IMG/VR virus record: IMGVR_UViG_3300002092_001237
Location: 32,001 to 96,000 of that record
Reading direction: 5' to 3' (one strand)
Source: a virus
Length of the DNA: 64,000 bases
Shown piece by piece: positions 25,152 through 45,114 of this stretch. Below the pieces are notes generated by a model. It did no database searches. It saw only the letters and a list, made by a program, of their open reading frames with translations, and was not told where the DNA came from. Made by a program: the position numbers and the translations under genes. How positions within the stretch are numbered: position 1 is the first letter of the stretch; each line of letters opens with the position of its first letter.

Positions 25152-28100
25152 TTAGTGTTTACCCACTAACACCTCTATTACGCTAACTCTATCGCCATCA
25201 TAGTCCGCTAATGCTTTACCTATGATGCTACCTGCTCTAGGATCTTCGCTAGCCATAGCAACACCCGGAACCATACTAACAACCATCATGTCACCTTTAG
25301 AAACCTTACCAATAACCTTACATGGTACGCGACCTTGTAGTGCTACAGTAGCAACGAATTCAGCTTCTAGCGCACTATTCATTAAATGTGCTGGATGTTC
25401 CGATATAACCCCTGCTACTTTAGTAGTACCTTGACCTTTGGCCAATGTTACTTCCTGTTCGCCGCCGATCATCAACACTGTACCGGGCTCGTATTTCTGA
25501 TCTGCTACATAATTTTCTGCCAAGTCAGCATAACGTGCTTGTGTAGCAGTACCATATATTAGATTCCAATTTAATCCACTACTGCCTAGGTTGTATGTTG
25601 CGTTCGCTAATGGTAATATATTTAGAGTATAAAGATCACAACTATTGATATCAATACCTTTATAGTTTCGAATGTAGGCATGATTATTTGAGTTTAAGCC
25701 AATACTTAATACTCTATTATCACCACCACTAAATGTAAAATTCGAATTAATAGTACTATTGGCCCAAGTAAATACTTCCCCTGCATCAACACCTGCCGGC
25801 GTCGTACCAAAAATCGAACTTATTCTTAAATTACCTGCTGTTATACTACCACCAGAAGTTATAGAACCTGCTGTTATACTACCACCAGAAGTTATAGAAC
25901 CTGCTGTTATACTACCACCAGAAGTTATAGCACCTGCTGTTACAGTACCAAATGTTGAATTACCGGAAGAATCTCTTGATACTAAGTTTTGGGCACTAAT
26001 AACCGTAGAACTATATGTAATAGTACCAAATTGTCCACTACCGAGTCGGGTCAATACACCAGTACCTACGCTGCTATTCGGAATACTATACGCAGCAGCT
26101 AAAGCACCGTCTACGACTGCGGTAAAATTAATCGCCGTTGGAGTAGCGGCGCCTGCTGTACTATTTCCAACGACAGTATTACCACTGATCGCTAACAGCC
26201 TATCTAATTTTAAGCTATTTGATTTAATGCTAGCGAACCCTGTACTAACGGTAAATTGATTAGCATCAAGACTAACTGCACCTCTTAGGGATCTTATAGT
26301 AGCAGTCGTTAATGTTGCAACACCGCTAATTATGCTAGAATATGTGATAGTAGATGATCCAGCACTATTAGTAGTAGCACCAGATACGATGTATGTACCA
26401 TTATATCCTGTAATACCAGTGACACCTGCTATAACTATTCTAGATCCTACTGGAAATGTATATCCAGTAATCGGAGTCAACCCATCTAATTGTAAAGGAC
26501 TAGAGAATGTCACGGTAACCGTTGTACCATTACCTGATATACCTGTTATAGTTATAGTTTCACCATAACTAGCATTAGCATTATCGATCGACAATTTAGT
26601 ATGATCGATAGCTGCTGTTGCAGATACTTTGCTATCTACTACTGCACCGGATTGTATAGTATATGTTAATATATTACCAGTTGGACCAGTAGCACTTAAA
26701 GCACCGACTACGTCACCTGCTGTTCTAGTATTGACCCATTTAGTGCCGCTATACACCATCATATCGCTACCAGTAGGCCCGGTTGGAGTAGTATATAAAA
26801 CATCGCCTAGTTGTGCGACATTTGCTTTAGTGTCAACATAGCCCTTGGTAGAAGCATCTGCGGTATCAGTTGGTGTTCCTACATTGGTTATCTTATTGCT
26901 GTTCATTCCGATACTATCCGGAACAGTAACCACTCCAGCACCGCCGGGGGTACTAGTTACCGTAGTGCTCGAAACAGTAGTATAAGTAAACGATGACAAC
27001 GAAACAATGCCAGTAACTGTTGTTGTAGTATTAAATGATGTATCAGTAAGTCCTGATATAGTGATTATAGAACCTACACTAAGAGCATTTGGCTGTGAAG
27101 TAACGATAGTTGCTGTTGTACCGGTTCTTGCGAAAGTAGCTATAGCAATCTGTGAAGTCGATCCCATAACGAACAGATCTATCTCATATCTTGTACCGCC
27201 GGTTAATTTTAAAAATTGATCAACATAGCTCTTATTAGCAGCATCGGTGCCACTAGAGGGTGCTACTACGTTTGCTATCTTATTAGTACCCATATCCAGG
27301 GTACCTTTCATCGTCACGCCAGCGCCGGGCTGTAGTGGTAAGAATCCCGAGCCGATCGGTGAAGTGCTAACGGTACCGTTTAGATCTACACCAAGTCTAC
27401 GATTTACATATTCTCTAACAGATGACATAGTTGGAACAGCATCACCAATATCTGGCATAGTAGCATCGTTTAAGAATTGAGTTATGAATACTCCGCTCTT
27501 AAATCCGAGACCAGTTAATCCACTAAGAACGATACTAGCACTAAAGCTAACTGTACCAGTACCTTGATCAACTGTAAAGAATCTACCTACACGGAAGAAT
27601 CCGTCTTGGTTAGTTGCTGCGAAGAACACACGCCCTCGGTTTTTTTCTTGAACTTCCGCTTTAGTATTACTACCCACCGAATCAACAGCATTGTTATTAT
27701 CAACCTTAGCTTCATAAGGAACACCATTTATGCTATTAGGATAATTTGAAGTATTATATCCCCCCGTTCCAATGTTCAAGAAGTCATGGCTTGTAACACG
27801 ATTAGTACTGATATTGGCGGTTAATAATCCTGATATTTCTTGTACTACAGCATTGGTACTGTGTACTGCTGCTACAGTACCTAATTGAGCACGATTAACA
27901 CCTGTTAATGTAGTAGTGCTACTGATTCCCGTGAATGAGAAGATTTCGCTATCTATTCTAACATATCTAGTATAAGTTCCATTATATGAGAACGTAGAGT
28001 TAGATGCCATTACTATAGTATTAACAGCACCGGTACCAGATATGCTCGATGATATAGTCGATGATCCATATGATTTTATTCCGGCGCTGATACTAACTCC

Positions 28101-31100
28101 GGTTGGAATAATAGTATTAGTCGGTAATGCTGAATTTAAAGTTAAGGTAGCATATGATCCAGGACTAGTGGCTGTATATGCTGTAATAGTTCTAGTATAC
28201 CCCTTTGGAGTTACGTTTTGATCTACCCACCCAAATTCCATTCCTACTATTCTTGATTTGTCGATATCAGTTAGTTCATTTATGCGTATAGTAGTCGCTC
28301 CACCTATCGCTGCTGTGTTTGTAACGGTAGCTGTAACGTAGCTATAATTACTATCAATCGTTATAAGACTAGTACCGCCTTGATATGCATTTATAGTAAC
28401 CGGAACACTAACATTTCCAACCGATACGTTATTTGAATTAGTTATAACCCATGTTGATGCATTTGTTGATGATACTGTTATAACTGATCCGTTTATCCCT
28501 GTACCACTTAATATCAATCCAGCTGATAATGAACCGTAACTTGGACTACCAACCACATTTAAAGTAAACCCACTTATATAACCACTAAATGTACAGACCA
28601 GTGTTGGATTTTCGTTTAATGCTTCTGTAGTTCCATATCCTGCATCGCCTGGATTTCGACTGTTATTGTAATAATTAGATGATAGTGCGACAGTTCTATA
28701 ATTGTTAGAAATACCGTCATATGTAAAATCTAAAGCAGTTGAAGGCCGAGATGTTAGTCCTACGAAATTACCATAAAATTTAAAGATTTCTGTAGTTCTT
28801 AACACTACAAAATCACCGTCGTTCATATTTTCAGTGAATTTTGTCGATGCTCCGTCGATTCCGGTACCTAAGCTAATTTTTGCGATTTTAGTATTCAACG
28901 TCGCAGTAGCAGGAGTTGATAAAGTTGCCCCACTAATAATACCAATCGATGCCGGAATACCAAAGATAGTCCCCGCCGTTGGTACTCCAAATGTAAATGT
29001 GCCAGTTGCTGTTACAGGATTCACTAGGTTGGTGCTTATCGTAACCACAGCAGTAGTAGTAGTAAAAGTAGGTGAATTCATAGTCAGAGGAGTTAGATTT
29101 GGACCCGAGCTTACTAAAATACTCGACACATAAGTAGTAGCTGTTGAAGTAATAGGATTAGGAGTAGTTGAAAAAGTTACAGTCTGTCCGACCTGTAACG
29201 GACTTTCATAAACTGTAACTCCGGTTCCGAGCCCAGTTGTTGAGATACCATTATAGATGAAAGATGTTCCAATAGCTGGAGTTGCTACGCCAGTTGATAC
29301 ACCTATACTCCACCACTGGGCGGATGTAAGTACTACAGATCCTAGATTTGCAATATAGTATATCTTGTTTAAATTAGAATTACCTGATATACTTGCAAGT
29401 GGAATAGCAGTGTATGCAGTACCGGCAGTTGTAGTTATTTGGAAGGACGATTGCCCCGTAGTACCGATAGTATTACCGGTCATAGTAACAGCAGTAACAC
29501 TGTTTTTACTACTATTGTTTGTTATATTCCAAGTTGTTGTTGTAACACCTCCAGTTGACGTAGTTGATGCTAAACTATTGACAATAACATTATCAGTATA
29601 TGCAGCATTTGTGCCACCAGTCCATATTAGAACCATACCGGGTGCTATAGCACCATACGTTGGATTACCAGTTACTGTTAGAAGTGTCGGAGTTGCTGCT
29701 GCTATAGTTCCAGTAAAAGATGTAACTGCTAAACCAGGACTAGCCAGTGCGACCCCAGTACCACTAGTTCCACTATATGATGGACCAGAGTTTAACACTG
29801 GGAATGTACCGTTAAAATCCGCCGAGTTGGCTGGTAATCCGTTACTTAATGTTACAGACGATGGTACACCACTTATTGTCACAGTATCGTAAAATGTTAC
29901 AGTACCGCTAACCGCACCTGAATTAGGAGCACTCAACGTAACGGTATTTTCTTTTACCGAAACTACTGTTGGGAATAATTGTGCTGTTAAGGTAGCACTT
30001 GTAAATGTGAGATTATTGGGATTTGTTACAGTCCACGAATTACCACTGGATGTAATTACTATACCCGTTACAGATATGTTGTTAGGGTTTTTTATAACCC
30101 AGGATAATGCTGATCCCGATGATATAGACACTATCCCTGTTATACCAGTACCTGATAAAGTCTGTCCAACCGCAACAGTCCCTGACGTTACAGATTGTAT
30201 CGTCAGGGTAGTACCGGAGATTGAACCTGTAAATGTTGCTCCAGGTGTTGCAACAGCAACTACACGTATATTATAAGTTACGCCGCTGCCGGTTAGTAAC
30301 AAGCCGTTATTGATTAACTGTCCTGGAACTAGAGTCTGATAACCTGTAGTAGTTAAGGTAGTTAATGTTCCCGAAGCGATAGTGCCTGTAAATGATGTAG
30401 TAAGACCAATATTTGTCCCTGCAACTATCTGTCCTTGATAGATGTTATAATTTGGAGCTACTACCGTGGGCGAAGTGAAATTGTTTACGGCACTTACGAG
30501 AGTTATAGTGTAAGAACCACTAGAACCTGTAACATTAGTTACTTGGGGAGTTCCACCATTAGGTGAGGTAGAGAATCCGTGCTGTGTAGTACATGTTATA
30601 GAACCCACTCCAGCACCGCCTTTTGCGATCATTGATATCGATGCACTATTAACGACGGGAGTGATATTATTGATAGTATACGTTGTCTTACCTGCGACAG
30701 GATGATATACCTGTATTTCTGTTATTGAATATGGAACATAATCATATCCTACTATGGTCATAAGTGACCCGCTAGCAGCATTATAACTAGCTCCATTATA
30801 TACAGAACCCTTCTTATATATTCTAGCATATTGAGTTAAATTATCTGCAAGTGTTACATATCTAGGAACTTCTCCTGGATCGGAACCTTCTGCTTTTAGC
30901 CCAAAAAATCCGTTTGAATTTGATCCACTAACTGCACGTATCTGTCCACCATTGATAGAATAATATGCTGTATGGCAATAGTATGTAAACACACTGACTA
31001 ATTCCATCAGCGCATTATTGGTTACCATTATACCATATGCTATATCGTTTACCTGTGTAAAGTGTGTCGCTAGCATACTTTTATTACCAGCAGTTTCTAG

Positions 31101-34007
31101 CACTATACTAGTATTTGCGCTACTGTAAGCATCACCTAATTGTAGAACTGCTGTTCCAGTTGAATCAGTGAATGACACGATCTTATCGATCCTATATCGT
31201 AGCCCATTTACATAGAAAGCAGTTGGCGTACCTGGAACTCTATTAACTTTACCATTTAGTGGTCTAGCCTGTTTGAAAGTTAATCCTGATACTGTTATCT
31301 GTGTTACTGGAGTTCCCTGTGTTAAAGCAGTAGTTATGGTTACTGGTATTCTGCCACTATAACCATCGACTAATGCACCGCCACGGAACGCTTTGGCGTT
31401 AACGGATGCAGAAATACTTGAACAGTTTTGTATGTATGGCGACTTAGTTAATATCTGTCCTTCCGGATCTAATACTGTTGCGAATCCACCATGTCCTTGT
31501 ATAGTAAAATCTTTTAACCCCGTTGCATCGTTCATTAGGAACATATCAATGTCTTTGTTGTTCCTCGGCGGGTTGAATGTAGCACTGTTTGATAACGAAT
31601 AAGAAACTATATCAACTAACGCATTCGCAACAGTTACACCATCGGGGACAGTTGGTAGATTTGATTCTGCTATATATGCTACTGCACTATTTTGTGAGAC
31701 ACTATCGGTATTCAATTTAAAAGGAGTAGTAGTATATGTATCTAAAATCGTATGTGATAAAATATTAGGTATGAGTTGTTTTAAGTAATCAAGCCCTGCC
31801 TTACAGACGGTTCTGTAACCACTTGAGTTAGTATACACAGTAGTGTTATAGAATCTGTAAGCAGCATTAACTACACCAGCAGTATCACCTTTAATCAAAT
31901 CATCGCAGATAGCACTTATGACTAATCCAACATCTCTCTGTGATTTAGTTTTATCAAACGTATTGCTGAGACTATTTGTTGCCGCATAGTTTAGCATATA
32001 TTGATAGACTTCTGCTTGCATAAATGCACTGTTTAATGATAGCATCGTAGATGTGTTATTATATCCTCCAGCATTAATGTTAGAATATATAGTCTGACTG
32101 TTAACTGTTATATTGCTCGGGTTACTAATGGTCCAGCTGAGTCCAGATCCACTGGTAATCTTGATGGGACTGCTTATTCCTGATCCTGATAATACTTGAC
32201 CAACTGTAATCGTTCCAGTAACTGTTCCAGTAGCAACGGTTAATGTTCCCCCGCTTATGCTACCTGAGAATACAGCATATCCAGGACCGATGTCTAGAGG
32301 TTTAGTTGGATCTGCTAGATAATAATATCCATATCCCGTAGTAGCGACGATAGGAGCAGCGACACTAACTGATACGTTGTATGGATTGTTAAGAACCCAA
32401 CTAGATCCGCTACCCGAAGCGATACTGACTGATGCTGTTATATTACCGTTAGCTCCTGTTAAAAATTGGCCTGCTGCGATAGTTCCTGTTATTGCGCTAG
32501 TTACTGTTAATACGGATCCAACTATAGTTCCACTGAATGTAGCATTTCCGATAGCTGTATTATTTGTAGTCAATCCGTCGATCACAGGATCACGATAGAA
32601 GTACATAGACCTCCACGGACTTGCGCTAGCTGCATCCTTTGGACGTATGATAGTTCTACGCATTTCAGATCCAATGATACTGACATTTTTAGGAACACGG
32701 ATTGGCAGATGTTCTTCGTATATTCCACTCTCTAGATAAATGGCGACCTGTATCTTCGGAGTCGCCTGATCGAAATAGAGATTTTCCCCAGTTTGGAAAG
32801 TACCAATAGTGCCTTGTATATCGATAAGATCGTAACCGCTTACTACGCCCCAGTACTTATTGATCGTACCAACTGCTCCCGACGACCCACCTACGATTAA
32901 TTTATTAGTAGTCAAATCTAGATTGCTTGGGTTACCTTGGTCGACGGTATTAGTTCCGTTTAAATTGGTTATCTGTAGACGAGTAACAGTAACACCGTCG
33001 TTTGTTGCAGTACCTACTGTGTAAACCGTACTAAGACTCGCACCAGCATTGACAGTGATTGGTTGCTTATAGTTTCCTGGTTCGATCGATGAAGCATAAA
33101 CTATATCTTCGGCATATTTACAAGCTTCACTAACGGATGAGAACGCATAAGCTAGAGCACGACCAACCCTATCAGTAGGTACGCTACTATATCTCATCTG
33201 TGCTGTTGTTCTACCATTGGTGCTAACAAATAGATCAACAGTGCTAGGGAATTCGCTTATATCTACATAGTTTTTAGTCGCAGCATGTAGATCAACGGTA
33301 GGGTTAGCGTTAAGAGTTAAGGGTCCGGTTAGTGTATCTCCGCCACGGTAAACTACGTCTTTCCTCTGCATAACTTCTGTCGATAGATAATTGCTAGTTA
33401 GGGTAGCATCATATCCAGTTACACCGATTTGTGGTCCGGTCGGTTGTGACCTCGATGTTAATGCACCAGTCATAGTATCGCCATCTATATTGAGATAGTG
33501 TCTATCTCCGTAGCCTTTGGTTATAACAAAACTATCGATACCGGCAGAGCCAGTTGGACCTTGGAAACTATTAGCAGCATTGATCGCACTAGAACTATCT
33601 GGATCTAATATGTTACCGATACTGAATAATCCCTTACCGTCGAGAGAACCACCTAGACTAGGAGTGGAATCTTGAGATACCTTCGCGCCTTTATTGGTTA
33701 ATATGATCTTAGTTGGGTCAGTAGTGTAATCAACACCTATACCTGTTTCTGAACTGCCGTATAATTCTTTGGCTAATATATATTTCCCCGTAGCATTAAC
33801 GATGAACATACTATTCGGAACTAGTGCTTGATCTTGATTAGGATCGTAATCACTTAGAGAAGTAAAAGGTATACCGCCCGAGTTACCTTTGGTTATAAAC
33901 GAATATAATTCATAGAAGTTTTCATTGACTTTATTAAATGAATCTCTGATAGCATCACCGGTTGCATCGTTACCCTCTACACCGATATTAATAATTTTCT
34001 GTGTCAT
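25152..34007 (-). CDS. Giant (2951 aa) tail fibre/spike with gp9/10-like N-terminus and C-terminal intramolecular chaperone domain
   Basis: N-terminus INIG..GNDATGDAIRDSF.KVN.NF; beta-helix-like middle (GIYEE.LPI.VP..VSI.G.E.RR); C-terminus YADLAENY...YEPGTV...VALQGRVPCKV. Confidence 0.8.
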   Translation of the reverse strand: MTQKIINIGVEGNDATGDAIRDSFNKVNENFYELYSFITKGNSGGIPFTSLSDYDPNQDQALVPNSMFIVNATGKYILAKELYGSSETGIGVDYTTDPTKIILTNKGAKVSQDSTPSLGGSLDGKGLFSIGNILDPDSSSAINAANSFQGPTGSAGIDSFVITKGYGDRHYLNIDGDTMTGALTSRSQPTGPQIGVTGYDATLTSNYLSTEVMQRKDVVYRGGDTLTGPLTLNANPTVDLHAATKNYVDISEFPSTVDLFVSTNGRTTAQMRYSSVPTDRVGRALAYAFSSVSEACKYAEDIVYASSIEPGNYKQPITVNAGASLSTVYTVGTATNDGVTVTRLQITNLNGTNTVDQGNPSNLDLTTNKLIVGGSSGAVGTINKYWGVVSGYDLIDIQGTIGTFQTGENLYFDQATPKIQVAIYLESGIYEEHLPIRVPKNVSIIGSEMRRTIIRPKDAASASPWRSMYFYRDPVIDGLTTNNTAIGNATFSGTIVGSVLTVTSAITGTIAAGQFLTGANGNITASVSIASGSGSSWVLNNPYNVSVSVAAPIVATTGYGYYYLADPTKPLDIGPGYAVFSGSISGGTLTVATGTVTGTITVGQVLSGSGISSPIKITSGSGLSWTISNPSNITVNSQTIYSNINAGGYNNTSTMLSLNSAFMQAEVYQYMLNYAATNSLSNTFDKTKSQRDVGLVISAICDDLIKGDTAGVVNAAYRFYNTTVYTNSSGYRTVCKAGLDYLKQLIPNILSHTILDTYTTTPFKLNTDSVSQNSAVAYIAESNLPTVPDGVTVANALVDIVSYSLSNSATFNPPRNNKDIDMFLMNDATGLKDFTIQGHGGFATVLDPEGQILTKSPYIQNCSSISASVNAKAFRGGALVDGYSGRIPVTITTALTQGTPVTQITVSGLTFKQARPLNGKVNRVPGTPTAFYVNGLRYRIDKIVSFTDSTGTAVLQLGDAYSSANTSIVLETAGNKSMLATHFTQVNDIAYGIMVTNNALMELVSVFTYYCHTAYYSINGGQIRAVSGSNSNGFFGLKAEGSDPGEVPRYVTLADNLTQYARIYKKGSVYNGASYNAASGSLMTIVGYDYVPYSITEIQVYHPVAGKTTYTINNITPVVNSASISMIAKGGAGVGSITCTTQHGFSTSPNGGTPQVTNVTGSSGSYTITLVSAVNNFTSPTVVAPNYNIYQGQIVAGTNIGLTTSFTGTIASGTLTTLTTTGYQTLVPGQLINNGLLLTGSGVTYNIRVVAVATPGATFTGSISGTTLTIQSVTSGTVAVGQTLSGTGITGIVSISSGSALSWVIKNPNNISVTGIVITSSGNSWTVTNPNNLTFTSATLTAQLFPTVVSVKENTVTLSAPNSGAVSGTVTFYDTVTISGVPSSVTLSNGLPANSADFNGTFPVLNSGPSYSGTSGTGVALASPGLAVTSFTGTIAAATPTLLTVTGNPTYGAIAPGMVLIWTGGTNAAYTDNVIVNSLASTTSTGGVTTTTWNITNNSSKNSVTAVTMTGNTIGTTGQSSFQITTTAGTAYTAIPLASISGNSNLNKIYYIANLGSVVLTSAQWWSIGVSTGVATPAIGTSFIYNGISTTGLGTGVTVYESPLQVGQTVTFSTTPNPITSTATTYVSSILVSSGPNLTPLTMNSPTFTTTTAVVTISTNLVNPVTATGTFTFGVPTAGTIFGIPASIGIISGATLSTPATATLNTKIAKISLGTGIDGASTKFTENMNDGDFVVLRTTEIFKFYGNFVGLTSRPSTALDFTYDGISNNYRTVALSSNYYNNSRNPGDAGYGTTEALNENPTLVCTFSGYISGFTLNVVGSPSYGSLSAGLILSGTGINGSVITVSSTNASTWVITNSNNVSVGNVSVPVTINAYQGGTSLITIDSNYSYVTATVTNTAAIGGATTIRINELTDIDKSRIVGMEFGWVDQNVTPKGYTRTITAYTATSPGSYATLTLNSALPTNTIIPTGVSISAGIKSYGSSTISSSISGTGAVNTIVMASNSTFSYNGTYTRYVRIDSEIFSFTGISSTTTLTGVNRAQLGTVAAVHSTNAVVQEISGLLTANISTNRVTSHDFLNIGTGGYNTSNYPNSINGVPYEAKVDNNNAVDSVGSNTKAEVQEKNRGRVFFAATNQDGFFRVGRFFTVDQGTGTVSFSASIVLSGLTGLGFKSGVFITQFLNDATMPDIGDAVPTMSSVREYVNRRLGVDLNGTVSTSPIGSGFLPLQPGAGVTMKGTLDMGTNKIANVVAPSSGTDAANKSYVDQFLKLTGGTRYEIDLFVMGSTSQIAIATFARTGTTATIVTSQPNALSVGSIITISGLTDTSFNTTTTVTGIVSLSSFTYTTVSSTTVTSTPGGAGVVTVPDSIGMNSNKITNVGTPTDTADASTKGYVDTKANVAQLGDVLYTTPTGPTGSDMMVYSGTKWVNTRTAGDVVGALSATGPTGNILTYTIQSGAVVDSKVSATAAIDHTKLSIDNANASYGETITITGISGNGTTVTVTFSSPLQLDGLTPITGYTFPVGSRIVIAGVTGITGYNGTYIVSGATTNSAGSSTITYSSIISGVATLTTATIRSLRGAVSLDANQFTVSTGFASIKSNSLKLDRLLAISGNTVVGNSTAGAATPTAINFTAVVDGALAAAYSIPNSSVGTGVLTRLGSGQFGTITYSSTVISAQNLVSRDSSGNSTFGTVTAGAITSGGSITAGSITSGGSITAGSITSGGSITAGNLRISSIFGTTPAGVDAGEVFTWANSTINSNFTFSGGDNRVLSIGLNSNNHAYIRNYKGIDINSCDLYTLNILPLANATYNLGSSGLNWNLIYGTATQARYADLAENYVADQKYEPGTVLMIGGEQEVTLAKGQGTTKVAGVISEHPAHLMNSALEAEFVATVALQGRVPCKVIGKVSKGDMMVVSMVPGVAMASEDPRAGSIIGKALADYDGDRVSVIEVLVGKH
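25833..25942. repeat. 33-bp tandem repeat, about 3.3 copies, inside the fibre gene (AGSITSGGSIT)
   Basis: Unit acctgctgttatactaccaccagaagttataga starts at 25833, 25866, 25899, with a partial copy at 25932. Confidence 0.9.
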
Positions 34008-38962: not shown

Positions 38963-39037
38963 TGGTGGGCGGTGAGGGTTTCGAACCCCCGACCCTCTGG
39001 ATGTAAACCAGATGCTCTACCGCTGAGCTAACCGCCC
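38963..39037 (-). tRNA. tRNA-Val(UAC)
   Basis: Cloverleaf; anticodon arm TCTGG-TTTACAT-CCAGA; encoded CCA. Confidence 0.95.
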
Positions 39038-41831: not shown

Positions 41832-41906
41832 TGGCTGAGGAACTAGGACTCGAACCTAGATTGACGGAGTCAAAGTCCGCTCTCCTACCGATTAGAGGAT
41901 TCCTCA
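41832..41906 (-). tRNA. tRNA-Gln(UUG)
   Basis: GCGGA-CTTTGAC-TCCGT, U1-A72, ends GCCA. Confidence 0.93.
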
Positions 41907-41910
41907 ACAA

Positions 41911-42107
41911 TGGCGGCCCGATATTGACACGTTTTGGATGAGCAGGCTCGGGCCAACACCTCCTCCGTAGATAGGTACTGTCTGAAACCTATCCAGTTTG
42001 TGCTAGCTAGGCTAGCGCAATGTGTGGAAAGATAGACTCCACACGGTCTTCTATACAGGTCCCTGCTTGCCCCTATATAGACTGACGGTATTTTTTGCAG
42101 GACCGCC
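41911..42107 (-). ncRNA. Candidate structured ncRNA (~197 nt) ending in CCA
   Basis: Four hairpins, a possible pseudoknot and a GGCCCGA/TCGGGCC-G-CCA end; lies between tRNA-Lys and tRNA-Gln. Confidence 0.6.
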
Positions 42108-42112
42108 AAACT

Positions 42113-42186
42113 TGGTGAACCTACCGAGATTCGAACTCGGATCAACGGATTAAAAGTCCGCTGCTCTACCATTGAGCTATGGGTCC
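42113..42186 (-). tRNA. tRNA-Lys(UUU)
   Basis: GCGGA-CTTTTAA-TCCGT; one acceptor-stem mismatch; encoded CCA. Confidence 0.9.
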
Positions 42187-42215
42187 TAAGACCCATAACA
42201 CACAGGTCTTTGTTG

Positions 42216-42719
42216 TTAATCGTGTCGCGGCATAGTGGCCGCTTCTTTTACGATTTCAATTACTTCATCTAACGAAGAACAGATAATTTTAGTTGTAATC
42301 CAATTATCATCTTCGCTACGTCCACCTACTTCTACCATATATCCATTGTCATACATGTTGATAGTAAATGACTCGTTAACCTTATGTAGTTTATCTGAGA
42401 TCTTTGTAGTCATAACACTTTTCCTTTGTTTTAAGTTGTGGTATCGAACGATATATCCGTCATGTAAATTTTCTTCATTACGAACAAGCCAGTTACTTGT
42501 TACATTACTTTGAAGAATACCATATTTGGTGACAGATTGTTTTAGTTGTTTACCATTATCTGTTGTATTAGCTAACGGAATATGTATTTGTCCACTACCC
42601 TCTAATCTCGATAAGACATCATGTAAGATTGGTTTAAAAAACTCAAAACTAACAGTATCTTTTGTAGATTCTGGGGTATCAGTACCATATGCTTCTTGCC
42701 AAGTTTTTGTCTTAGTCAT
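42216..42719 (-). CDS. Hypothetical protein (possible internal start at MTTKISDK)
   Basis: GAGG RBS at the 5' start and AAGGA before the internal ATG. Confidence 0.5.
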   Translation of the reverse strand: MTKTKTWQEAYGTDTPESTKDTVSFEFFKPILHDVLSRLEGSGQIHIPLANTTDNGKQLKQSVTKYGILQSNVTSNWLVRNEENLHDGYIVRYHNLKQRKSVMTTKISDKLHKVNESFTINMYDNGYMVEVGGRSEDDNWITTKIICSSLDEVIEIVKEAATMPRHD

Positions 42720-44656: not shown

Positions 44657-44666
44657 GATAAAAAAG

Positions 44667-44813
44667 TTGAGAGGGACGAGTGTCGACCCTCTTTTCAATA
44701 TCCGGGTTCCCAAGGTTAAAAGAAATTCCCCTTAGGGACTCTTACCCGACCTCGATGTGGTTGGTTCACTATGTGAACGATCAACTCATCCGTGCTACTA
44801 TACTGCCTCTCAA
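44667..44813 (-). ncRNA. Candidate structured ncRNA (~147 nt)
   Basis: TTGAGAGG/CCTCTCAA terminal stem, internal hairpins, T-arm-like 3' part. Confidence 0.55.
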
Positions 44814-44817
44814 AACT

Positions 44818-44989: not shown

Positions 44990-44998
44990 AATATTCTC

Positions 44999-45110
44999 TA
45001 GATGCGTAGGCGCTCGAATCCCTCACCAGCGGACGCTTTGGACCTGTCCACCCCGGAGCCACCCAACGGGCTGGGCACCATTACCCCATTAAGGCTCGAT
45101 AACGCATCTA
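44999..45110 (-). ncRNA. Candidate structured ncRNA (~112 nt)
   Basis: TAGATGCGT/ACGCATCTA terminal stem with GC-rich internal hairpins. Confidence 0.55.
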
Positions 45111-45114
45111 ATCT

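Follow-up and report, generated by a model that had tools for sequence, protein, structure and literature searches.

A conserved pseudoknot RNA located among phage tRNA genes and possibly mimicking a tRNA acceptor arm

The stretch of viral DNA analysed here, 64,000 nucleotides (nt) in length and referred to as the window (bases 32001-96000 of the 107,689-base-pair (bp) IMG/VR virus record IMGVR_UViG_3300002092_001237, with a CheckV completeness of 25%), carries between two transfer RNA (tRNA) genes a 197-nt element that, as judged from comparative sequence analysis, is a real, conserved and heavily folded non-coding RNA. By the searches described below it is the long member of an uncatalogued RNA family, absent from Rfam 15, that is built around an H-type pseudoknot with a 7-bp acceptor-like helix. 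The explanation that accounts best for the data, held tentatively and with somewhat less than even confidence, is that the element is a stable RNA co-processed with tRNAs, with a core that mimics the acceptor arm of a tRNA. Coordinates are window positions, W denotes the window sequence and the element is read on the minus strand.

The source phage is an uncultivated freshwater phage, and the stretch is present, with the element unchanged, in lake and freshwater metagenome DNA runs. ARAGORN identifies 21 tRNA genes on the minus strand between positions 38963 and 49361, all 21 with a CCA at or just past the 3′-end. The element is housed in a 206-nt gap between tRNA-Lys(ttt) at 42113-42186 and tRNA-Gln(ttg) at 41832-41906, both recognized by ARAGORN and Rfam and both with an encoded CCA, and the minus-strand order is CCA-AGUUU-(197 nt)-UUGU-tRNA-Gln. 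The predicted RNA (41911-42107) extends from the 5′ G of hairpin P1 to the A of a terminal GCCA. Consistent with a preliminary description of the region, made from the sequence alone, it starts 5 nt past the tRNA-Lys CCA and ends, with GGGCCGCCA, 4 nt ahead of tRNA-Gln. The 5′ spacer, AGUUU (42108-42112), is identical in W and in two of the relatives introduced below, L292 and L240; the 3′ trailer, UUGU, occupies 41907-41910, and the distance from the pseudoknot to tRNA-Gln is 8 nt in W, L292 and L305.

The gap is rich in G and C, as previously noted, with a GC fraction of 0.518 versus 0.402 for the window and 25-41% for the flanking open reading frames (ORFs) and intergenic DNA. The minimum free energy (MFE) of the predicted RNA is -77.7 kcal/mol, as compared with -59.2 ± 4.2 kcal/mol for dinucleotide shuffles (z = -4.4), and none of 200 shuffles folds as well. 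The sole ORF across the element, of 103 amino acids (aa) at 41885-42196, reaches through both tRNAs and is spurious. A search of the window with Rfam 15 placed no family on the element at gathering thresholds, nor at E <= 10 with lax filters; the families without a match include transfer-messenger RNA (tmRNA), RNase P RNA, 6S, signal recognition particle (SRP) RNA, Y RNA-like RNAs, the group I intron and the known ribozymes and riboswitches. ARAGORN likewise reports no tRNA or tmRNA within 41907-42112, and these two results uphold the earlier statement that the element could not be assigned to tmRNA, RNase P, 6S or SRP RNA. For 16 related loci, searched with Rfam 15 at E <= 1, there is no match on the element and only the flanking tRNAs are recognized on or near it. 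A literature search for the core sequence returned only unrelated primers. Promoter scans revealed no clear promoter for the element. RNA runs share only 7-9% of the sampled words, with reads that cover only parts of the two flanking tRNAs and that come from other organisms.

Neither blastn (distant mode) with the element nor tblastn with a neighbouring 373-aa protein found a match in 50,697 phage records. Relatives were located by synteny, through a 167-aa ORF, which led to contig L197, flagged earlier by nhmmer, and contig L191, with the shared order ORF-(tRNA-Lys)-element-tRNA-Gln-tRNA-Gly. A 3′ motif common to W, L197 and L191 was converted into a pattern and scanned in viral, metagenome and genome collections. 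This pattern scan yielded seven full-length relatives of the element, all metagenomic, which form two groups: group A (L292, L240 and L305), near W, and group B (L197, L281, L286 and L191).

Covarying homologues were sought and were found in these seven, with compensatory changes both within group A and in the comparison of all eight sequences. The model for group A has 61 pairs in nine helices. In the corresponding alignment the paired fraction of the cells is 99.2% and both sides have changed in 13 of the pairs, with a covariation score of 0.317 versus 0.169 ± 0.022 in shuffles, none of which (0/500) reaches it, and pairing collapses to 34-41% when the partners are slid by 1-3 columns. Every helix listed here is fully complementary in all eight sequences, with between four and eight different strand pairs for each. 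At the sequence level, the compensatory changes support five hairpins (P1 to P5), one loop-loop contact and a 3′ H-type pseudoknot.

Hairpin P1 (42084-42107), GGCGGU/ACCGUC with a 12-nt loop, has six strand pairs in the eight sequences, all complementary, as exemplified by the covariants GACGGU/GCCGUC, GACGAU/GUCGUC, GGCGGA/UCCGCC and GAGCGG/CCGCUU. Hairpin P2 (42051-42080), CUAUAUAGG/CCUGUAUAG, is different in each sequence, with eight strand pairs in eight sequences, all complementary. Hairpin P3 (42022-42044), GUGUGGA/UCCACAC, has five strand pairs, and five of its seven base pairs change on both sides within group A. Hairpin P4 (42002-42016), GCUAGC/GCUAGC, also has five; it is invariant in group A and takes the forms GUCUAGC/GCUAGAC, GCCAGC/GCUGGC, UCCAGC/GCUGGA and ACCAGC/GCUGGU in group B. 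Hairpin P5 (41968-41995), UGGAUAGGU/ACCUAUCUA, is present in all eight sequences, with a bulged G in the 3′ strand of group B. The loop-loop contact, K1, joins CCUGC in the P1 loop (42097-42101) to GCAGG in the P2 loop (42062-42066), with four strand pairs in the eight sequences (CCUGC/GCAGG, CCCGA/UCGGG, CCUAC/GUAGG and CCCAC/GUGGG). A candidate tertiary pairing, K3, between GACA in the P5 loop (41979-41982) and UGUC in the linker ahead of the 3′ strand of the pseudoknot (41926-41929), is suggestive; it is only 4 bp long and was placed by eye, and has five strand pairs in the eight sequences (GACA/UGUC, UAGU/GCUA, UGGA/UCCA, CGGA/UCCG and UGGU/ACCG).

The four hairpins in the preliminary description (CUAUAUAGG/CCUGUAUAG, GUGUGGA/UCCACAC, GCUAGC/GCUAGC and GAUAGGU/ACCUAUC) exist and are kept in the relatives. 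The helix CCGU/ACGG that was thought to enclose them is replaced in the present model by P1, as ACCGUC pairs locally, and with covariation, with GGCGGU. The proposed pairing of the loop AGCAGG with a downstream CCUGCU also fails, as CCUGCU is missing in the close relative L292 and GCAGG pairs instead with CCUGC in the P1 loop. An alternative stem, in which the 5′ sequence GGCGGUCC pairs with the 3′ sequence GGGCCGCC and which corresponds to the closing stem of the MFE structure, has uncompensated mismatches in L240 and L305, the same changes being compensated in P1. A pattern based on this MFE closing stem (GGCGGTCC...GGGCCGCCA) returned more than 118 matches, and those fetched were unrelated to the element by local blastn and nhmmer.

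The core of the RNA is the H-type pseudoknot, with the topology b5′-L1-c5′-G-b3′-L3-c3′. Stem b, GGAGGAGG/CCUGCUCAUCC with bulges (41936-41966), closes a 12-nt loop, UGUUGGCCCGAG, that consists of UGUU-GGCCCGA-G, and the GGCCCGA pairs with UCGGGCC located 25-35 nt downstream. Within W, pseudoknot loop 1 (UGUU; UCUU in L191) is at 41955-41958, the 5′ strand of helix c (GGCCCGA) at 41948-41954, its 3′ strand (UCGGGCC) at 41915-41921, and the GCCA, shaped like a tRNA discriminator base plus CCA, at 41911-41914. The same core occurs as a short module of 55-65 nt in ~40 further contigs, viral or metagenomic, that are unrelated and differ widely in GC content, in the order a5′ - (ACG) - b5′ - UGUU GGCCCGA G - b3′ - purine-rich joiner (GGAAGA or UGAAAG) - a3′ - (..AUA)A - UCGGGCC. 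In 23 short forms, all six pairs of stem b change on both sides, with 39 covarying cells versus 13.6 ± 3.0 in shuffles (0/500), and the pairing is destroyed by sliding the partners. Support for helix a (4-5 bp) is weaker, with a mean longest Watson-Crick run of 4.15 versus 3.65 ± 0.16, a value that 3 of 500 shuffles reach.

As helix c was fixed in the original pattern, rescans were made with N at single pairs (pairs 1, 6 and 7). The rescan at pair 7 recovered four independent new elements with a stem b of 5-12 bp, and in all four an A-U to U-A flip gives GGCCCGU...ACGGGCC; the pair-7 matches without stem b have arbitrary base combinations. At pairs 1 and 6 no compensated variant was found in IMG/VR, with one doubtful U.U case (L360), and no variant with another helix c emerged when 2.8 Mb of fetched loci were scanned with a descriptor. 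All family members were found by exact patterns, and variation in the core is undersampled. The 7-bp GGCCCGA/UCGGGCC pairing suggested in the preliminary description is thus borne out by the covariation of stem b and the flip at pair 7 of helix c, and the G-C pairs of helix c are constrained in sequence beyond pairing. About 20 core bases are nearly invariant and the flanking stems covary freely. Because the stems around the identical 20-nt core are unrelated among the members, the core is kept by selection rather than by recent common descent.

Stem b is present in 45 elements among the viral and metagenome matches. A scan of the genome_contigs collection (596 Gb, 185,579 species) gave 21 matches, with ~34 chance matches expected by estimate, and stem b is present in none of the 16 examined among the matches listed; these matches look like chance hits in GC-rich coding DNA. 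Judged, for cellular genomes, from the matches listed, the RNA family is restricted to phages. Of 49 loci with the element, 24 have tRNAs by ARAGORN, and the flanking tRNAs are without exception on the strand of the element. At many loci the element starts 1-7 nt past the 3′-end of the upstream tRNA and stops 3-10 nt ahead of the next tRNA. The remaining members, about half, lie between protein genes, often right past a stop codon; the module at such loci often starts ~2-10 nt past the stop codon and ends ~20-30 nt ahead of the next start codon. Neighbours at these loci include the terminase and portal genes, DNA polymerase, with the module ahead of it, and a Cas4-like nuclease nearby. In one GC-rich phage (L213:2710-2920; identical in L220) the genes for the terminase large subunit and the portal flank the pseudoknot, which carries a 5′ extension of ~150 nt that has short motifs in common with group B (GAUGGGGCUG, CCUGACAC and a CCAGCC/GGCUGG hairpin). 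Alignment of this extension to group B was attempted and not achieved, and it folds no better than shuffles (z = -0.9). A short-form element on contig L250 has, just upstream, a 127-nt stretch (L250:497-623, minus strand) that matches the Rfam tRNA model with 33.6 bits, perhaps representing a tRNA interrupted by a long insertion or by an intron.

Each of the four phage records searched whole, including a complete 297.7-kb record, has one copy of the element. The neighbourhoods of 44 loci have no protein family in common; DNA polymerase is downstream in three or four of the 44, and is 2 kb away in all but one of these. Conservation of the core across phages without a common neighbouring protein family points to a universal host partner.

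The case for tRNA mimicry rests on the tRNA-like placement and spacing of the element within co-oriented arrays, the acceptor-like helix c and the enrichment of CCA-like tails. Of 47 elements with stem b, 10 have NCCA after the pseudoknot, versus none of 39 chance-like matches (Fisher p = 0.0016), and CC is present at +1 or +2 in 24 of the 47 versus 3 of the 39 (p = 1.5e-5). W and its close relatives have a GCCA tail. CCA-bearing elements occur only in arrays in which CCA is encoded, with numbers too small to count. Helix c has 7 bp and a G-C first pair, with a U immediately 5′ and a single G between helix c and stem b, on which it is presumably stacked. The CCA end claimed in the preliminary description is present in the window as GCCA but is retained in only part of the family. 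Its wider proposal of a processed stable RNA, taken as tRNA-like, stands as the best reading available, given the co-orientation, the tRNA-like spacing, the preservation in relatives and the acceptor-like helix with GCCA, whereas the partner proposed for the pseudoknot and the enclosing stems were wrong.

The processing envisaged under tRNA mimicry follows that of E. coli tRNA operons. In the E. coli model (PMC2190699), RNase E cuts 1-3 nt past each CCA, RNase P makes the 5′-ends and 3′ exonucleases trim. The ~197-nt RNA would be transcribed together with the phage tRNA array and probably released by the host tRNA-maturation enzymes. By analogy with E. coli, an RNase E-type cut would fall inside the AGUUU spacer past tRNA-Lys, RNase P would cut at the 5′-end of tRNA-Gln, and 3′ exonucleases would shorten the UUGU trailer back to GCCA. 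The released RNA would then run from AGUUU|GGCGG... through ...GCCA, and P1 to P5 plus one or two tertiary pairings (K1 and K3) would build on the pseudoknot core. The core is envisaged as an acceptor-arm mimic, formed by a pseudoknot, to which the enzymes of tRNA maturation are recruited. Bacterial RNase P would bind it and perhaps cut it in loop 1 after UGUU; the 3′-end of the core RNA would be maintained as in a tRNA. Binding by RNase P is suggested by the 7-bp helix with its first G-C pair, the U at -1, the presumed stacking on stem b and the CCA-like tail.

There is precedent for such a substrate. Kosek et al. (2025; PMC12710915) reported that bacterial RNase P RNA accepts a small H-type pseudoknot as a substrate if a 3′ RCCA is present, cutting it in loop 1, fastest with a U 5′ of the site, and that the tRNA-like pseudoknot of turnip yellow mosaic virus (TYMV) is cut too, likewise after a U. 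The features of these pseudoknot substrates are present in the window RNA, UGUU|GGCCCGA...UCGGGCC-GCCA, with cleavage after the last U of loop 1 predicted by analogy. TYMV-type tRNA-like structures and the synthetic RNase P substrates resemble the phage element in having an H-type pseudoknot, an acceptor-like 3′ helix and a U before the helix, and the (N)CCA that follows the helix in part of the phage family may be a counterpart of theirs. An acceptor-like arm formed from an H-type pseudoknot is present in the phage family, as indicated by the covariation of stem b and the flip in helix c. The TYMV-type structures are, however, at the 3′-end of the genome, whereas the element belongs to a DNA phage and is internal to a tRNA array or operon. 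The phage element also has no T-arm, D-arm or anticodon-arm mimic, its short forms consisting of helices a, b and c only with no T-loop motif, and its CCA is only partly conserved and its helix sequence nearly invariant.

Several observations weigh against an acceptor-arm mimic. Stem b varies from 3 to 12 bp, so that the stacked helix is not fixed at the 12 bp of a tRNA acceptor/T arm, and no T-loop or D-loop mimic was found in family members. The CCA-like tail is missing in about half of the members, and its register varies, with CC following directly or one base later. The near-invariance of the G-C pairs of helix c exceeds the known needs of RNase P, which suggests that a partner or a chemistry specific to the sequence is involved. 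Cleavage in loop 1 would divide the RNA in two, without a clear use, and about half of the members are located between protein genes rather than in arrays. Transcription, end positions and cleavage of the window RNA are predictions.

Ligands are commonly bound by H-type pseudoknots in which the third loop is rich in purines, as in the preQ1-I, SAM-II and guanidine-III riboswitches. Like these, the phage element has a hairpin loop that pairs with a 3′ tail and a purine-rich third loop, but it has different conserved bases, no Rfam match, a tRNA-array setting and no consistent downstream gene. It is possible, if doubtful, that the pseudoknot is a trans-acting aptamer or decoy rather than a tRNA mimic, one that binds a conserved host protein or small molecule, for example to sequester a defence factor or a signalling nucleotide, with the array serving solely as a strong cassette for expression and processing. 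A core constrained well beyond pairing, with pairs 1 and 6 that never vary, is as expected from such binding, as are restriction to phages, a single occurrence in each record searched and the lack of a conserved neighbouring gene. Against it, the ligand or partner cannot be named, no riboswitch model matches, and such binding accounts for neither the enriched (N)CC(A) tail nor the tRNA-like spacing. The broader proposition that the RNA represents a new functional class, either a self-cleaving ribozyme or a high-copy decoy, expressed from the tRNA array, for a universal host factor with tRNA acceptor ends as its target, we also consider with some scepticism; the factor captured or blocked by such a decoy could be RNase P, the CCA enzyme or a defence toxin by which the 3′-ends of tRNAs are modified or cut. 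A reading of the UGU in loop 1 as a TGT substrate, prompted by the 7-deazaguanine genes of the phage, was dropped, as L191 has UCUU.

A new small self-cleaving ribozyme, with a catalytic pseudoknot core that cuts polycistronic phage transcripts beside tRNAs or between genes, is unlikely. In its favour are a core of ~58 nt in which ~20 bases hardly vary, the stems covary freely and peripheral helices are optional, and the scattered locations of the elements, which are invariably on the sense strand, next to tRNAs or between genes that differ from locus to locus. The theta ribozymes, which are pseudoknotted, ~50-60 nt long and directly adjacent to phage tRNA genes in the same orientation, are a precedent for phage ribozymes adjoining tRNAs (PMC10879173), and are described there as nested double pseudoknots with a catalytic C in J4/2. 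The phage element, in contrast, lacks a P3/L3 hairpin ahead of the 3′ strand of its 7-bp helix, and has no HDV-type (hepatitis delta virus) Rfam match. In the HDV-like fold the helices are ordered P1-P2-P3-P3′-P1′-(P4)-P2′, with cleavage at the 5′-end of P1. With helices in the order a, b, c, b′, a′, c′, as opposed to P1, P2, P3, P3′, P1′, P2′, the element, judged by reading the sequences, does not fit this fold, nor does it fit the pistol or twister folds, and k-turn and armless-tRNA readings, also tried by hand, fail on helix order in the same way. No Rfam ribozyme model matches (E <= 10 for the window and E <= 1 for the 16 loci), no cleavage site can be named, and there is one copy per record searched.

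An improbable account is that the element acts in cis, as a 3′ cap that shields the upstream RNA from 3′ exonucleases after the downstream tRNA or gene has been cut away, or as a signal to the next unit. The closeness of the modules outside arrays to the upstream stop codon and the next start codon, and of those in arrays to the following tRNA (3-10 nt), could be read in this way, but in compact phage genomes any intergenic element abuts its neighbours. A protective structure would need no invariant sequence, there is one copy per record searched rather than one per operon junction, and the neighbours differ (terminase and portal genes, DNA polymerase, tRNAs). The position in a phage tRNA cluster recalls the T4 species 1 and 2 RNAs (rnaC and rnaD), but that the element is one of these or another known stable RNA (tmRNA, RNase P RNA, 6S, SRP or Y RNA), a degenerate tRNA or a chance structure is very improbable, given the lack of an Rfam match at E <= 10 or of a tmRNA or tRNA prediction by ARAGORN, and with chance ruled out by the covariation in the short forms of stem b and in group A. 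The T4 RNAs are small stable RNAs, likewise encoded within a phage tRNA cluster and spaced like tRNAs. Read by eye, with no alignment, their sequences lack the UGUUGGCCCGAG/UCGGGCC motif, and the 3′ part of rnaC is a T-arm-like hairpin, GGGUUCGAAUCCC, rather than a pseudoknot. As far as sequence and covariance models can tell, the element is not related to the T4 RNAs that the preliminary description gave as an analogy.

Two other inter-tRNA gaps in the window, at 44657-44817 (161 nt) and 44990-45114 (125 nt) on the minus strand, can form long terminal-stem folds of -48.0 and -42.6 kcal/mol, respectively. They open with AGUUU or AGAUU directly past a tRNA CCA, as does the RNA studied here, and the pseudoknot motif is absent from both. 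The 167-aa ORF used for synteny is upstream of tRNA-Lys, at 42216-42719 on the minus strand, and is without a Pfam match; at least 110 IMG/VR loci, mostly away from tRNAs, encode versions of its C-terminal ~60 residues with 49-72% identity. In group B, a conserved 53-aa ORF (LTWCLDIL...WLVKQALKAERE) is located directly 5′ of the element in L197 (6353-6514) and L191 (6632-6793), and in nine other viral contigs that have this ORF the element is absent from the 330 nt read after it. Near-consensus sigma-70-like promoters are present on the minus strand at L281:735-763 (TTGACA-17-TAAACT) and L286:64-92 (TTGACG-17-TAAAAT), just past the element and ahead of tRNA-Gln, and in these two contigs the downstream tRNA-Gln may have its own promoter. 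Relatives reached through the 373-aa ORF have no tRNA array beside that ORF; a distantly related contig found by this route has a permuted tmRNA with the tag ANDEVFALAA (L003:15375-15769). A single ORF of 2951 aa occupies 25152-34007 on the minus strand of the window, with ORFs of 1471 and 1300 aa close by, and ORFs of this size fit a very large phage genome.

Stable non-tRNA RNAs have been known in phage tRNA clusters since T4 and are still unexplained. There is now a family of ~45 members in unrelated phages, for which a consensus is defined, a structure is backed by covariation and the proposed mechanism can be tested. Should the core prove to mimic the acceptor arm and to be handled by RNase P, DNA phages would join the plant RNA viruses, from which tRNA mimicry by pseudoknots is known so far, and the family would supply a naturally occurring collection of pseudoknots as RNase P substrates. 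A ribozyme or a decoy would instead represent a new class, and a decoy for a host factor would be an RNA-based device for counter-defence or host takeover common to very different phages. Either way, the family closes a gap both in Rfam and in the annotation of phages, in which such spacers stay blank.

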